In this document: piece after piece, positions 22,977 through 31,404 of the stretch | How the letters are laid out: each line of letters begins with the position of its first letter | Numbering within the stretch: position 1 is the stretch's first letter | DNA from: Parcubacteria group bacterium LiPW_15 | GTDB taxonomy: Bacteria; Patescibacteriota; Minisyncoccia; UBA6257; 2-01-FULL-56-20 | DNA: 64,000 nt | Reading direction: 5' to 3' | Assembly: GCA_007375645.1 (NCBI GenBank) | Contig: VMER01000001.1 | Span: 134,256 to 198,255 of the forward strand | The notes under the pieces: generated by a model | Told to the model about the DNA's origin: nothing | What the model saw: the letters and a program-made list of their open reading frames with translations, nothing else | Databases searched by the model: none | Translations under genes and position numbers: made by a program

Positions 22977-24584
22977 TTACAAACGCCTTTTTTTGCAATA
23001 GTTATTGACTTCTTGCTTTACAAAAACTATCCAGCCGAATATTCCTCCGGAAAGGAAAACGACCAGCAGGATCAATAATCCGATTGCCAAATAGACATTG
23101 TCTATGCTGATTGATCCGATGCTGATTACGGGAGCGCGCTCTATTTTCAAACTGACTGAGGGCGAGTCTCCGCTTGTAGCGCCGCGGCTGTCCATAACTG
23201 CGGCATACAGGCTATATATACCCTCCCTTAGCTCGCCTGCCCAAACGAGGCGAAAATTACCGAATGGATCGCTTCTTACGATCTGCGTTTTTGTTCCTCC
23301 TTCCTCATTTTTGATAAAGACGGTTACCGTGCTGTCCGGATAAGTTGTTCCTATAAATTCCAACACTTCACCGGTCTTTGATGCAATAGGATATTGAGTG
23401 AACTTCGGAGAATCGATCGCCACGACTTCAAATTCTTTTGCCGCCGTAGAAACATTTCCGGCTTTGTCCACCGCTTGAACCAAAAGTATTTTCTTTCCTG
23501 AGGCTTGATGATTTAAAACTAACGGCTGGTTTTGCAGAGTGAGTGCATCAACGTTATAAAAATCTTCGCCATCCACTTTGACCGCGAAATGATCAAGGCC
23601 GGAAGTCTTGTCTGTTGAGGTGACATTGAAAGCCGGCTCTGGATTGGTTTTGTCTTCCAGGGTTATTGCTTCTATGAGTGCTTGATCCGGCGGCAAGGTA
23701 TCAATCTGCACGCGGAAGTGGGAAATTGAACCCCAACCGTACTTATTTTTTTCCTGCACGTGGAAATACCATATCCCGTCGCCCAAACCGGTTATTTCCT
23801 TTGAGTCTATCGCCGGAGAATAAGTTTTGGTCGGATACGATTTGGCTGCTCTATCTAGCAAAATTCTTACTGAAGTAACTCCTTTGGGCAAAGGACCCCA
23901 GTCAAAACTTGCAGAAGATGTGGCATACCAGGCGGAAGGATCGGGATGAGTGAAAGAAATCACCTGGGGCGCGGCCGGAACGCCGCTTATAACCGACGGC
24001 GTAGTAGCTTCGGGAGAGGAAAGCGATGGAGGGGTTGAGACCTCCGGAACCTTCCCATTGTTTATTAGGTTGTAATTGGCGCCGGAAAGATCTTTGAGAA
24101 CATTTGTCCCCTGCCCGTCATTTGCGAGTACCGAACCATCGGTTATAACAAGAGATGCCGTTCCTGAGCTTTTTACCCTAAAATTTATTTTTATGATCGT
24201 ACCGGATAAGCCAATGTACCCCGGATTTAAAACCACTTCTTCAAAACTAACCTCGCCCGTAAAATTAGAAAGGGTCGGTTCTTGGGACCAGAGATTAACA
24301 ATAGAAGCTGCTTTAGAAATGGAAACCGCTTCCAATTTATCTTTGGGAAAAGCGATTGTGCCAGACATCGCGTTAATGCTTTGGTCTACGCTCGAAACCA
24401 CTACTGTCGTGGTGAAAGTATCACCTACCGAATAGCTGGCCGTATCCGGCAGAATTTCCAACAAGGCCGCGTCAGCTTTAAAGGCAGAGGAAAATAACAG
24501 AATGGACGCAAACAATATTAATCCTTTTAAAAAATTTTTATAAATATGCACGTTTTTATTTGTACCGTCTGCGCAAAAATACAT
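22977..24584 (-). CDS. Cohesin domain-containing cell-surface protein with C-terminal TM anchor
   Basis: N-terminal cohesin-like module (LEILPDTASYSVGDTFTTTVVVSS...) and a C-terminal hydrophobic helix. Confidence 0.65.
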   Translation of the reverse strand: MYFCADGTNKNVHIYKNFLKGLILFASILLFSSAFKADAALLEILPDTASYSVGDTFTTTVVVSSVDQSINAMSGTIAFPKDKLEAVSISKAASIVNLWSQEPTLSNFTGEVSFEEVVLNPGYIGLSGTIIKINFRVKSSGTASLVITDGSVLANDGQGTNVLKDLSGANYNLINNGKVPEVSTPPSLSSPEATTPSVISGVPAAPQVISFTHPDPSAWYATSSASFDWGPLPKGVTSVRILLDRAAKSYPTKTYSPAIDSKEITGLGDGIWYFHVQEKNKYGWGSISHFRVQIDTLPPDQALIEAITLEDKTNPEPAFNVTSTDKTSGLDHFAVKVDGEDFYNVDALTLQNQPLVLNHQASGKKILLVQAVDKAGNVSTAAKEFEVVAIDSPKFTQYPIASKTGEVLEFIGTTYPDSTVTVFIKNEEGGTKTQIVRSDPFGNFRLVWAGELREGIYSLYAAVMDSRGATSGDSPSVSLKIERAPVISIGSISIDNVYLAIGLLILLVVFLSGGIFGWIVFVKQEVNNYCKKRRL

Positions 24585-25389
24585 AAGCCACTACTATTAA
24601 TAGTAGCAAAACAAGCAAAACCGCGGCGTTAGTCCAATTCCAAAATGGTTTGTTTTTAGCCTCCAGTATTGCCTCCCGAACATTTCCCGCCCTATCTACT
24701 GCGCGTACATAAATATCGCTCGCGAGTTTTTGATCTTTTAAAAGGTAGGGAGATCCAGCGCTGGAAGAGGAGAATCTGCCGCCGCCCAGGACCAAAGAAT
24801 TTTCAATCAGTTCATAACGAGCTATTCCCGAGCCTTTATCCGTCGTTGAAAATACCAATGCCCACTTTCCGTCATATAAGCTGTCATTTTGAATTAGCTG
24901 AGGAACAAAACTTTCCGGTGAAATTTCATCGCTTAAATTCGCGCCCGGCATGGACCCGGGATTTACCAACGCGTCTCCGGCAAGAGAGATGGATCTTCCG
25001 CTGCCGTCGTTCAAATACGCGCTACCGGAAACACGGAAGCTTCCTTCCGAGGCAGGCGCCTTGGAAAAATTCAAATTAATCAGTTTTACTGCCGACCCCA
25101 TCATGCCTCCGGGAATCATTCCGGAAAAGCTGACTAAGCCGTCGTCGTTAGAAAACCCGGGCTTTGTTATCCAAAAATTGACCGCAGAATTCCCGTCTCC
25201 CAATGAAGCGATTTGAAACACCTTGGGATCAAACCTTAAGCTGACATCTATAACGTTTATCGCGTCTCCCTCGGTATCTAAAAGAACATCCACTTGTCCA
25301 AGTGCGGAGTTTTGAAATCTTATCGCCGCGCCAAGCACTTGGTTCGGAATAAGCAGGGTCGCCAATAATAGAAATAAATACTTTTTCAT
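24556..25389 (-). CDS. Cohesin domain-containing protein with C-terminal TM anchor
   Basis: Signal peptide, a cohesin-like module and a C-terminal TM helix followed by RRRYK. Confidence 0.65.
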   Translation of the reverse strand: MKKYLFLLLATLLIPNQVLGAAIRFQNSALGQVDVLLDTEGDAINVIDVSLRFDPKVFQIASLGDGNSAVNFWITKPGFSNDDGLVSFSGMIPGGMMGSAVKLINLNFSKAPASEGSFRVSGSAYLNDGSGRSISLAGDALVNPGSMPGANLSDEISPESFVPQLIQNDSLYDGKWALVFSTTDKGSGIARYELIENSLVLGGGRFSSSSAGSPYLLKDQKLASDIYVRAVDRAGNVREAILEAKNKPFWNWTNAAVLLVLLLLIVVAYVFLRRRYK

Positions 25390-25402
25390 TATATTTGCCG
25401 AG

Positions 25403-26545
25403 TTAGCCGGTCCAATAATAAGCCATTATGCTGAAATCCTTTAGGTCCACTTTGCCGTCGGCGTTCAAATCGGCTTTTTGAGCGGCAGGGGTCGTGAGAG
25501 CCCGTCTATACCAATACGCGAGTATAGAAAAGTCCACCAAGTTAACTCGTCCATCTCCGCTTATGTCGGTTTTTATGGTTTTCGGCGTTAAACTCGCCAA
25601 AATAGTTTTTGTTCCGACCTTAAATCCGGCGGTTTTAGAAAATGAGGTCATATCTCCGTCTTTTGCCGCGGTTGCCCTGGTGCTATGATCGCCGTAATCG
25701 ACTTCGGAAGTATCAAATTTATATAGCCAAATTCCTGACTCGTCGGAAATAGTCTTTTTTGTTAGCTGTCGCGGCGAATTGATAAGAACGGAAATAGTAG
25801 AACTTGGAGCGCTTTGACCAAAAATGCTTATCGGTTGTCCGCGCTGAACTTCTATTTTATCCACGGAAATTGTCGGTGCAAAAAATATTCCACTGACCAC
25901 CGTAGTAAAACCGGTGGTTACGCCGACCTGAAATTGTTGAGTCAAAGAACGATTATATTGCGAGTCTTCCGCCCAGATTCCGAAATTATACGAACCTGCG
26001 GTGAGTCCGCTGGCCCTGATCTCGAAATTCGCGTCATCTCCGGCCAAAGTGGTGCCAAAGATCTGCCCGTCTTTCAGAATAGTTATGACGCTCCTGGGGT
26101 ACGCTTTTCCGCGAAAGATCGCCTGAACTTCGGAGGGTGTTGGCGGCCAATATCCTCCTCCCCCTCCGCCACCGCCCCCGCCGCCCGAGGGCGGAGTAAC
26201 AACGCAATTCGCGTCTACCGTGCATGTATCCGTTCCCGCGCCGGTTATAGTAGCGCAAGTTTGACTCACGCAAGACTTATGGGTGGGCACCGGAGGAATC
26301 ACGTAATATAAAAATCCGCTGTTAATCCGATAGCTTGCGGTAAGACCGGAACCGGCGACCAATTGACCGACGGAACTTTGGAGTTTGTAGCTAGCGGACA
26401 CCGAAAGCCCGGCACCGGAATCTATAACCGGATCCGCGACTTTAAAATTTGAAGAGGAATAATTTTCTCCGGCCGCCAAAATCGGAATAACAAAAAAAGA
26501 AACGGTGGCTAATTGTAAAATAATTTTAGACCACGATTTTCTCAT
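25403..26545 (-). CDS. Secreted dockerin-containing protein with poly-Gly linker
   Basis: C-terminal tandem dockerin repeats DISGDGRVNLVDFSILA and DLNADGKVDLKDFSIMA, plus a run of 11 Gly. Confidence 0.7.
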   Translation of the reverse strand: MRKSWSKIILQLATVSFFVIPILAAGENYSSSNFKVADPVIDSGAGLSVSASYKLQSSVGQLVAGSGLTASYRINSGFLYYVIPPVPTHKSCVSQTCATITGAGTDTCTVDANCVVTPPSGGGGGGGGGGGYWPPTPSEVQAIFRGKAYPRSVITILKDGQIFGTTLAGDDANFEIRASGLTAGSYNFGIWAEDSQYNRSLTQQFQVGVTTGFTTVVSGIFFAPTISVDKIEVQRGQPISIFGQSAPSSTISVLINSPRQLTKKTISDESGIWLYKFDTSEVDYGDHSTRATAAKDGDMTSFSKTAGFKVGTKTILASLTPKTIKTDISGDGRVNLVDFSILAYWYRRALTTPAAQKADLNADGKVDLKDFSIMAYYWTG

Positions 26546-31194: not shown

Positions 31195-31205
31195 AACAAC
31201 CAAAA

Positions 31206-31232
31206 ACCGTGCCCCCGAAACGCTTTCGGGCA
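31206..31232 (-). promoter_or_regulatory. GC hairpin plus T-run immediately upstream of the giant gene start (attenuator or terminator-like)
   Basis: GTGCCCGAAAGCGTTTCGGGGGCAC-GGTTTTT lies 7 nt before the ATG, and there is no Shine-Dalgarno. Confidence 0.3.
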
Positions 31233-31404
31233 CTTATCTATTATATTAGCAAATTCTTGACAAAATTACTCATCCTGTTTGTGGACAAGTTAGACGGGTC
31301 CTTTATTAAGCCATTTTATGTCTTTTTAGCCCCCGAAAAACCACCCACTGACGAAGGAAGAATGGGTCGTGATGCCAAAAGGTTCTCCAGTTCCACTCTT
31401 ATAT

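Follow-up and report, generated by a model that had tools for sequence, protein, structure and literature searches.

A candidate membrane-anchored cohesin–dockerin socket for a cell-surface appendage in a Parcubacteria group bacterium

The DNA analysed here is a 64,000-nucleotide stretch (contig VMER01000001.1, positions 134,256 to 198,255; hereafter the window) from the metagenome-assembled genome (MAG) of Parcubacteria group bacterium LiPW_15, a member of Patescibacteria or the candidate phyla radiation (CPR). It includes a locus of five genes, which we call A, B, C, D and E. We see an even chance that this locus codes for a membrane-anchored cohesin–dockerin "socket" of a cell-surface appendage. 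What leads to this view is the identity of the domains, the topology of the proteins, the strict linkage of C, D and E, and the co-occurrence of A and B with one particular type of N-terminal module on C. CPR bacteria account for a large part of bacterial diversity, and most of them live attached to other cells. Cohesins and dockerins are best known from cellulosomes.

An earlier reading made from the letters alone (the sequence-only reading) had placed five minus-strand genes at 22977–31233, and re-calling of open reading frames (ORFs) in the window returned all five of them there. The genes are co-oriented and tightly packed in the order A-B-C-D-E. They are separated by 52 nt (A–B), 97 nt (B–C) and 13 nt (C–D), and D overlaps E by 29 nt. 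The genes on either side of the locus are unrelated housekeeping genes. The window proteins correspond to LiPW15_181–183 (100% identity). Coordinates of all features are collected in Table 1.

Protein C is secreted: hydropathy analysis found a signal peptide and no other transmembrane segment. Its dockerin scored 29.5 bits against Pfam Dockerin_1 (PF00404, gathering threshold 22.9) over residues 326–375 and contains the duplicated calcium-binding segment typical of the family. Two canonical 12-residue calcium loops, DISGDGRVNLVD (residues 327–338) and DLNADGKVDLKD (residues 359–370), fit the pattern D-x-[DNS]-x-[DN]-G-x-[VIL]-[DNS]-x-x-D, each being followed by a helix; an AlphaFold2 (AF2) model has helices at 336–344, 352–358 and 368–379. 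Both loop and helix segments are nearly invariant in 30 diverse C relatives, all of which end with ...DFSIMAYYWTG, and the domain matches the dockerin ends of the clostridial cellulases CelK and CbhB. Upstream of the dockerin the AF2 model has two confident immunoglobulin (Ig)-like sandwiches, matching in structure comparison the tandem Ig/fibronectin type III (FN3) extender domains of bacterial adhesins. A polyglycine run of 7–16 residues is invariant or nearly so at the linker position throughout the family, the 30 relatives included, whatever lies N-terminal of it, and the only variable part of the family is the N-terminus. C is the secreted dockerin protein with a Gly11 linker that the sequence-only reading had described, down to a glycine run of exactly 11. 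As ideas only, this run could be a hinge or a site of processing or ligation, at which for instance a glycyl-glycine endopeptidase would cut or a sortase would find its acceptor.

The cohesin of E scored 36.1 bits against Pfam Cohesin (PF00963, threshold 24.1) over residues 47–157. Comparison with Pfam profiles had been named beforehand as the refuting test of the sequence-only reading, and both the C dockerin and the E cohesin passed the curated thresholds. Further along E, NCBIfam barrel_OmpL47 (E = 1.1e-5) and Pfam Big_13 (43.5 bits, above the threshold of 27) were matched. By hydropathy, E has a C-terminal transmembrane helix (residues 504–522) followed by KKRRL and a 13-residue cytoplasmic tail. 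D has a signal peptide and a C-terminal helix of the same kind (residues 254–272) followed by RRRYK.

For D, the assignment comes from structure and homology. Its N-terminal domain aligns to the E cohesin (BLASTP E = 7e-11) and its second domain to the OmpL47-type domain of E, while the D-family profile matches the cohesins of Ruminococcus flavefaciens ScaB. D was modelled by AF2 (predicted local distance difference test, pLDDT, 91.1; predicted TM-score, pTM, 0.78), and the model has the nine-stranded jelly-roll beta-sandwich of cohesins. Comparison with PDB by Foldseek returned cohesins as the top 26 matches (target TM-scores 0.38–0.63, most near 0.6), the best being 2w1n, a cohesin and FN3 double module of Clostridium perfringens GH84C (E = 1e-7); no PapD-like chaperone was among the best 50 matches of the model. 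By predicted fold and homology to E, then, D is a cohesin protein. In solved type I complexes the sheet of strands 8-3-6-5 is the dockerin-binding face, and in D the residues of strands 3, 5, 6 and 8 are more conserved than those of the opposite sheet (Mann-Whitney p = 0.0018). The proposal of two cohesin proteins with C-terminal membrane anchors is borne out for E by Pfam and for D by fold and homology, both having the transmembrane helix, and it extends to the family: 78 of 79 D-like and 74 of 81 E-like relatives have a C-terminal transmembrane helix.

Given where these two families are best known from, and the match of the C dockerin to the ends of CelK and CbhB, one may think of a miniature cellulosome-like complex displaying polysaccharide-degrading or -binding enzymes. 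We regard it as highly improbable. Scans with Pfam, NCBIfam and PHROGs found no catalytic or carbohydrate-active domain in the five window proteins, and neither kind was found in the scanned relatives of A, B, D and the C proteins with the same type of N-terminus; PHROGs gave no match at all for the five proteins. There is a single dockerin per locus, never more than one cohesin per protein, and anchoring is by transmembrane helices, not by S-layer homology (SLH) or sortase signals. What makes up a cellulosome, a multi-cohesin scaffoldin together with dockerin-bearing carbohydrate-active enzymes, is missing here.

The strongest regularity is the linkage of C, D and E. We called ORFs in 86 related loci (labelled L001 onward) and searched them with A–E. 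In 84 of the 86 the genes are arranged as C→D→E, all on one strand; the remaining two contigs stop 52 nt after C, so that the trio is present in 84/84 loci with sequence downstream of C. Two cohesin-like genes follow C in 70 loci, three in nine and one in two loci at contig ends. Between C and D the gap has a median of 9 nt, and in 76% of loci the genes D and E overlap. All 86 loci have one dockerin of the C type, and no protein bears more than one cohesin. Mean pairwise identity is highest in the dockerin (67%), followed by the Ig pair of C (58%), the cohesin of E (53%, 79 loci) and that of D (36%).

Outside these loci, more than 2303 clusters of C relatives were found at E ≤ 1e-3 among the candidates scored, and at least 525 species-representative genomes encode one; the named genomes belong to many lineages of Parcubacteria/Paceibacteria and ABY1 type. 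Database names of family members are only "dockerin type I repeat-containing protein" or "hypothetical protein". A profile of the C alignment gave 44,199 matches at E ≤ 1e-3 among 1.84 billion representative proteins, a figure unusable as family size because it is inflated by giant FN3-repeat proteins matching the optional FN3 insert; about half of the best 150 matches are proteins of 280–690 residues aligned to the last profile position. Seven loci (L010, L023, L047, L051, L064, L070, L074) have the CPR-type operon in MAGs labelled Methylomirabilis, Gammaproteobacteria or Planctomycetia, and many further ones are labelled "uncultured Candidatus Saccharibacteria". The odd labels are probably binning or naming artefacts.

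The trio is often located directly upstream of what we take to be the rpsL–rpsG–fusA–tuf genes, recognised from their N-terminal sequences (L007 13517–18728 and about nine other loci), and in four loci (L002, L003, L072, L075) it adjoins type IV pilus genes (PilM, T2SSE ATPases). Such housekeeping and pilus surroundings indicate a core-genome context and not a mobile island. A class-A beta-lactamase-like gene (Pfam Beta-lactamase2, 1e-35 in L007) often lies between the giant fibre gene and B, or near the trio (L002–L005, L007, L021, L023, L029, L041, L048, L054, L072, L075, L080); there is none in the window. Most E-like relatives (L002, L004, L006, L007 and others) continue after the transmembrane helix into a conserved cytoplasmic helical tail of about 77 residues with the consensus RKK..EAE.ALHKAFDLLKEDI..QIK.LEK.KTKR.LTEEEEKII..LKKDLDDAEKFV.KEIKDIE, while the E proteins of the window (tail 22977–23018) and of L008 have 13 residues only. 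Conservation of this tail suggests that the anchor is usually coupled to something intracellular.

This kind of conservation could also be expected if C, D and E formed a general envelope scaffold of Patescibacteria (part of the wall, an S-layer or another core structure), A and B being independent adhesin genes that happen to lie next to it. The trio is found in every locus, A and B in about a quarter only; the surroundings upstream of rpsL–rpsG–fusA–tuf are frequently housekeeping ones; for a protein of the cell surface, the core of C is conserved to an unusual degree (58–67% identity), as expected of a core structural part; and the cytoplasmic tail of most E relatives hints at an intracellular link. 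Still, we think such a scaffold unlikely, owing to the behaviour of the C N-terminus described below.

In the window, C begins after its signal peptide with three S-x-N-F/Y-x-L-type units, which we call the SSNF module. SSNF fragments taken without signal peptide from ten loci all matched NCBIfam CPR_pilus_PamT, as the top match in all ten and the sole match in nine, over model positions 24–78 of 241 (E from 4.4e-9 to 6e-3). Full-length C scored 27.6 bits over positions 7–78 of 241, against the 240-bit cutoff of this equivalog model (NF058579), and PamT-match scores overall were 16–36 bits. As judged from these profiles, C shares a module with PamT and is not a PamT orthologue.

The PamT-like module separates the loci with respect to the upstream genes. 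Among loci with enough upstream sequence, B is found in 23 of 33 with the module on C and in none of 37 without it, and A-like proteins in 19/33 and 1/37, respectively. In L008 (4205–8922) the module is located on a separate 345-aa protein right after the B homologue, and the dockerin protein has an FN3 N-terminus. B and the module thus stay neighbours here although the dockerin protein lacks the latter.

Loci without A and B (L006, L007, L012, L025 and roughly 40 others), which we call type 2, have a WxL-like cluster directly upstream of the C homologue. It includes a large BNR-propeller protein with a pilin-like C-domain, a small pilin-like protein with a weak match to NCBIfam CPR_Pam_pilin_C over the full length of that model (L007, E = 3.6e-4), and a membrane-anchored tandem-Ig protein whose family profile matches Enterococcus faecium WxLIP1 (E = 3e-4). 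It is a hint at kinship between the Pam pili of CPR and the WxL clusters of Gram-positive bacteria. In type 2 loci the mature N-terminus of C resembles the N-terminal beta-strand of its pilin-like neighbour (local alignment score 24.3 vs 18.1 ± 0.8 for shuffled sequences), and the resemblance is closer to the neighbour of its own locus than to those of other loci (permutation p = 0.006). Taken together, the co-occurrence with the module and the strand match suggest that C engages the appendage encoded upstream with its N-terminus. A general scaffold with unrelated neighbours accounts poorly for the absence of B and near-absence of A where the module is missing, or for the co-variation of the C N-terminus with the strand of the adjacent pilin-like protein: both are hard to explain unless this N-terminus engages the products of the upstream genes.

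The same observations bring in another possibility, namely that the locus is a divergent appendage of the Pam or WxL type built by strand complementation, in which D and E would be assembly chaperones (PamC/PamD or WxLIP-like), C a tip or terminator, and the "dockerin" would have some other role. The match of the C N-module to PamT is in line with it, as is the presence of the Pam-pilin-C-like (E = 3.6e-4) and WxLIP1-like (E = 3e-4) proteins directly upstream of the trio in related loci. The tandem beta domains and C-terminal transmembrane helix of D and E fit the description of PamC, PamD and PamR, and a tail-fibre-like gene is reported as a central neighbour of pam operons (bioRxiv 10.64898/2026.03.03.709456). 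We nevertheless find this quite improbable. The fold of D matches cohesins and not PapD-like chaperones, and no member of the D or E families matches any Pam model. The window has no pilin-like gene; where chaperone-like genes are present, they come in addition to D and E; and a near-invariant canonical dockerin encoded beside cohesins is most simply one half of a binding pair. Kinship of D and E to the WxLIP or chaperone-like family was considered separately and rejected, hhalign giving a probability of 7.7% over 26 columns for the D family vs the WxLIP-like one.

As for the genes upstream of C, an independent gene call on the identical contig starts A at an ATG; the ORF itself reaches a GTG at 31233 and would then code for 1375 residues (27106–31233). 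Hydropathy found a single N-terminal hydrophobic segment and none at the C-terminus. The size and this segment agree with the secreted repeat protein of about 1360 residues proposed from the letters, while the word "repeat" applies only loosely: a fibre motif, G-[IV]-G-x-x-[ST]-P, occurs three times, and no tandem repeats were found in the DNA of A.

The N-terminal domain of A weakly resembles that of Bdellovibrio mosaic adhesive trimer (MAT) fibres, scoring 18.4–18.7 bits (E ~1e-3, 0.0015) against NCBIfam Bdello_MAT_N (NF053851), below the cutoff of 60. Four of 20 A-family members match this model (best E = 6.3e-8), and a MAT_N-like domain is present in six related loci, five of which have the PamT-like module on C. 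A profile of a more distal domain (A8, residues ~905–1055) matches the Aureispira grappling-hook protein GhpA (9flp, E = 8.9e-4) and the auto-chaperone region of the phi29 pre-neck appendage gp12 (6qz9, E = 0.014; 3gqh, E = 0.057). One A relative matches the Pfam Peptidase_G2 IMC model (E = 0.0016), and other proteins encoded at the operon position of A bear Peptidase_S74 in place of the chaperone-like domain. The middle "cargo" domains vary among relatives and include Laminin_G (LamG), an LVIVD propeller and surface Ig domains. Among the upstream giant proteins of related loci, no part is shared more widely than the conserved C-terminal beta domain, which has a weak Pfam H_lectin match (E = 0.1) and whose profile matched nothing in PDB. 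Tails comparable to the Pro/Thr/Glu-rich one of A are seen in relatives. From these sub-threshold matches, A is best described as a putative mosaic adhesin of the tail-fibre type.

B is the small membrane protein expected at this position, with one transmembrane helix at residues 10–28. Its family comprises at least 1103 clusters, and a family profile gave noise only against Pfam and PDB. A search through the family toward Saccharimonadia or pam loci gave no link among the best 120 of the at least 1103 clusters, the named ones being of Parcubacteria type.

Table 1. Features of the five-gene locus in the window (position 1 is the first letter of the window).
Feature	Coordinates	Strand	Residues	Description
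Gene A	27106..31194	minus	1362 aa	Secreted mosaic fibre-like protein (putative); ATG start
A, N-terminal domain	30832..31086	minus	50–134 (1375-aa ORF)	Weak likeness to Bdellovibrio MAT fibre N-terminal domain
A, chaperone-like domain	28069..28521	minus	~905–1055	Intramolecular-chaperone-like; ...GRVPVKVS..NG.I..GD...
A, conserved C-terminal beta domain	27466..27810	minus	1142–1256	FFGRPYFNSDTxGFAVV...KGFTIxLNK...FxW
A, C-terminal tail	27109..27459	minus	1259–1375	Pro/Thr/Glu-rich, low complexity; read from the translation
Gene B	26643..27053	minus	136 aa	One N-terminal transmembrane helix; conserved ~70-aa extracytoplasmic domain
Gene C	25403..26545	minus	380 aa	Signal peptide, PamT-like N-module, Gly11, two Ig-like domains, dockerin
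C, N-terminal SSNF module	26300..26467	minus	27–82	Three S-x-N-F/Y-x-L-type units adjoining the signal peptide
C, Gly11 linker	26153..26185	minus	121–131	Glycine run
C, tandem Ig-like beta-sandwiches	25586..26125	minus	141–320	Two confident sandwiches in the AF2 model
C, dockerin	25406..25570	minus	326–380	Type-I-like, C-terminal
Gene D	24556..25389	minus	277 aa	Signal peptide, cohesin, Ig/FN3-like domain, C-terminal transmembrane anchor
D, cohesin-fold domain	24964..25329	minus	21–142	Nine strands in the AF2 model
Gene E	22977..24584	minus	535 aa	Signal peptide, cohesin, three further beta domains, C-terminal transmembrane anchor
E, cohesin domain	24114..24446	minus	47–157	Cohesin
E, OmpL47-type and Big_13 Ig-like domains	23142..23627	minus	320–382 and 409–481	Beta domains

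From the features of the locus we infer binding of the dockerin to the cohesins, a 1:2 stoichiometry, coupling of the fibre to C, and a role in attachment or episymbiosis, and the following course of events can be proposed. All five products would be exported by the Sec pathway. D and E would stay in the cytoplasmic membrane by their C-terminal helices, each exposing one cohesin on the outer face, while the fully secreted C would plug its C-terminal dockerin, with its two calcium loops and two near-identical helices, into these cohesins. Of the two, E has the better-conserved cohesin and hence is more likely the primary partner, and a single dockerin may bind D and E together through its two symmetric faces. 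The two Ig domains of C would then make a stalk fixed to the membrane, followed by the polyglycine hinge and an exchangeable N-terminal module. Since the PamT-like module co-occurs with A and B, it would be the part that, possibly helped by B, tethers the fibre A to a cell without an outer membrane. The cell would thereby gain an adhesive appendage with which to contact a host or partner cell.

Several points speak against the socket. D alone gave no match to Pfam Cohesin, and only 10 of 69 D relatives reach it at E ≤ 0.01. One dockerin faces two or three cohesins, an excess that the socket model does not explain. The N-module of C has pLDDT below 50 in the monomer model, i.e., it is predicted to be disordered, which is uninformative and not supportive. 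A and B are missing from more than half of the trio-bearing loci, so the trio does not depend on the fibre A. The fibre character of A is suggested by weak, sub-threshold matches, with no family match above threshold. The C-terminal domain of A was considered as a pilin-like acceptor and rejected, having no similarity to the pilin-like family (hhalign probability 0.1). Finally, co-transcription of A–E can be presumed only from spacing and conserved gene order. With these points taken into account, the core of the sequence-only reading, membrane cohesins that would hold the dockerin protein and perhaps the fibre, is supported, the more so as the trio is linked in 84/84 loci and A and B co-occur specifically with one type of N-module.

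Concerning the locus at the DNA level, a promoter and terminator scan gave as many sites as in shuffled sequence and is uninformative on operon structure, and Rfam and tandem-repeat scans found nothing in the locus. The sole strong terminator-like site near its 3' end is a 10-bp G+C-rich hairpin with T-runs on both strands (22513–22538), downstream of a small Trp-repressor-like gene (22571–22885). The lowest G+C content in the window is at 18000–22400 and at 32–34 kb (0.39–0.43 vs about 0.47–0.50 elsewhere); the former stretch contains a row of small minus-strand ORFs (19390–20647). An ORF to which no function was assigned (21397–22353) overlaps tRNA-His (22306–22378) with its 5' end, and tRNA-Gln is located at 17649–17720.

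Cohesins and dockerins serve for surface anchoring in cellulosomal bacteria as well: in Clostridium thermocellum type II Coh–XDoc pairs operate with SdbA and OlpB, and in R. flavefaciens the ScaE cohesin holds the adhesin CttA. The locus resembles these systems in having cell-fixed cohesins and a secreted partner (its binding is inferred here) with a C-terminal dockerin preceded by an Ig-like module; the dockerin has the canonical duplicated calcium-binding segment, and the D model matches cellulosomal cohesins, including that of the R. flavefaciens cohesin–dockerin–X-domain complex 4iu2. It differs in carrying single cohesins on C-terminal transmembrane helices instead of SLH or sortase anchors, in the lack of scaffoldin and enzymes, in having one dockerin vs two or three cohesins per locus, in its CPR host, and in that the trio is a conserved core operon.

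To our knowledge, the Pam pilus, described in 2026, is the only structurally defined CPR appendage system that is not of type IV. The pilus of Ca. Mycosynbacter amalyticus includes PamT, and a tail-fibre-like gene is reported as a central neighbour of pam operons (bioRxiv 10.64898/2026.03.03.709456). Like it, the locus described here is a CPR-specific surface-appendage operon (as we read it) with Sec-exported subunits, membrane-anchored tandem beta-domain proteins and no trans-envelope machine; its C N-module shares homology with the PamT model over positions 24–78, and a tail-fibre-like gene is a conserved neighbour in both. Unlike it, the window encodes no PamA/B/E-type pilins, and PamT is the only Pam model matched: no window protein matched the Pam pilin models (nine-strand N-domain, donor linker strand, truncated Ig C-domain) at E ≤ 1. 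D is a cohesin by its predicted fold, not a PapD-like chaperone; no chaperone of the PapD/FimC type with a C-terminal transmembrane helix (PamC, PamD) was found, and the 69 D relatives match no Pam family. The Pam paper names neither cohesin nor dockerin (bioRxiv 10.64898/2026.03.03.709456).

Bdellovibrio MAT fibres are intertwined trimeric beta-prisms with a variable adhesive tip and an S74 or non-S74 C-terminus. The A family resembles them and phage appendages in its conserved N-domain, variable cargo and S74- or G2-type chaperone-like module, and LiPW_15, like the bearers of MAT fibres, is likely to live attached to other cells. In contrast to these fibres, all matches of A are below family cutoffs, and its chaperone-like domain is internal and followed by a further conserved domain and a Pro-rich tail. 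The Gram-positive WxL/Csc clusters (PMC10599100) have counterparts in the related loci only: a small protein consisting of just a pilin/WxL-like domain, a large one with an N-terminal binding domain and a pilin/WxL-like C-domain, and a WxLIP-like tandem-Ig protein with a transmembrane helix. These genes are missing from the window, and the WxL clusters described so far contain nothing equivalent to the dockerin–cohesin trio that comes after the cluster in CPR. SEML1_0315, an essential dockerin protein of Southlakia epibionticum (PMC10633639), was considered and not taken as a homologue of C: it is a stand-alone protein of 927 residues with three Ig-like domains and no adjacent cohesin genes.

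No description of the trio operon came up in a full-text literature search that combined cohesin or dockerin with CPR, Patescibacteria or Parcubacteria. The type of interaction, cohesin with dockerin, is known. New are the anchoring by transmembrane helices, the ratio of one dockerin to two or three cohesins and the lack of enzymes and scaffoldin, and also the CPR host, the phylum-wide conservation and the association with appendage genes of Pam/WxL-like or tail-fibre-like type. As far as we know, non-cellulosomal cohesin–dockerin pairs were catalogued more than 15 years ago and their function is still largely unassigned; a phylum-wide, single-copy, operon-encoded example offers a good experimental entry point.

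Since the trio is present in hundreds of related species, it probably serves as a general socket holding attachment appendages. We speculate, tentatively and with some doubt, that it is the universal membrane socket of Parcubacteria and related CPR classes for interchangeable appendages, the C N-terminus being a strand-donating plug. It is possible, though not something we would count on, that this plug is matched either to an upstream WxL/Pam-like pilus or, through the PamT-like module and B, to a MAT/tail-fibre-like adhesin.

One dockerin with two membrane cohesins, in at least 525 species genomes, constitutes a candidate for the appendage-anchoring step in CPR. Through shared modules and gene order the locus links cohesin–dockerin pairs, strand-complemented fibres of the Pam/WxL type and MAT/tail-fibre-like adhesins. 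For MAT fibres, the authors state that the partner bound by the N-terminal domain on the cell-proximal side is not known (PMC10769870), and the locus gives a candidate answer, from a different phylum, to the question of what holds the base of such a fibre on the cell. If the trio is indeed a universal socket, a non-cellulosomal cohesin–dockerin pair would for the first time have a defined function, and the finding would suggest PamT of Saccharimonadia as an adaptor for the tail-fibre-like protein encoded beside pam operons. The base of the organelles by which CPR bacteria attach to their hosts would thereby be identified.

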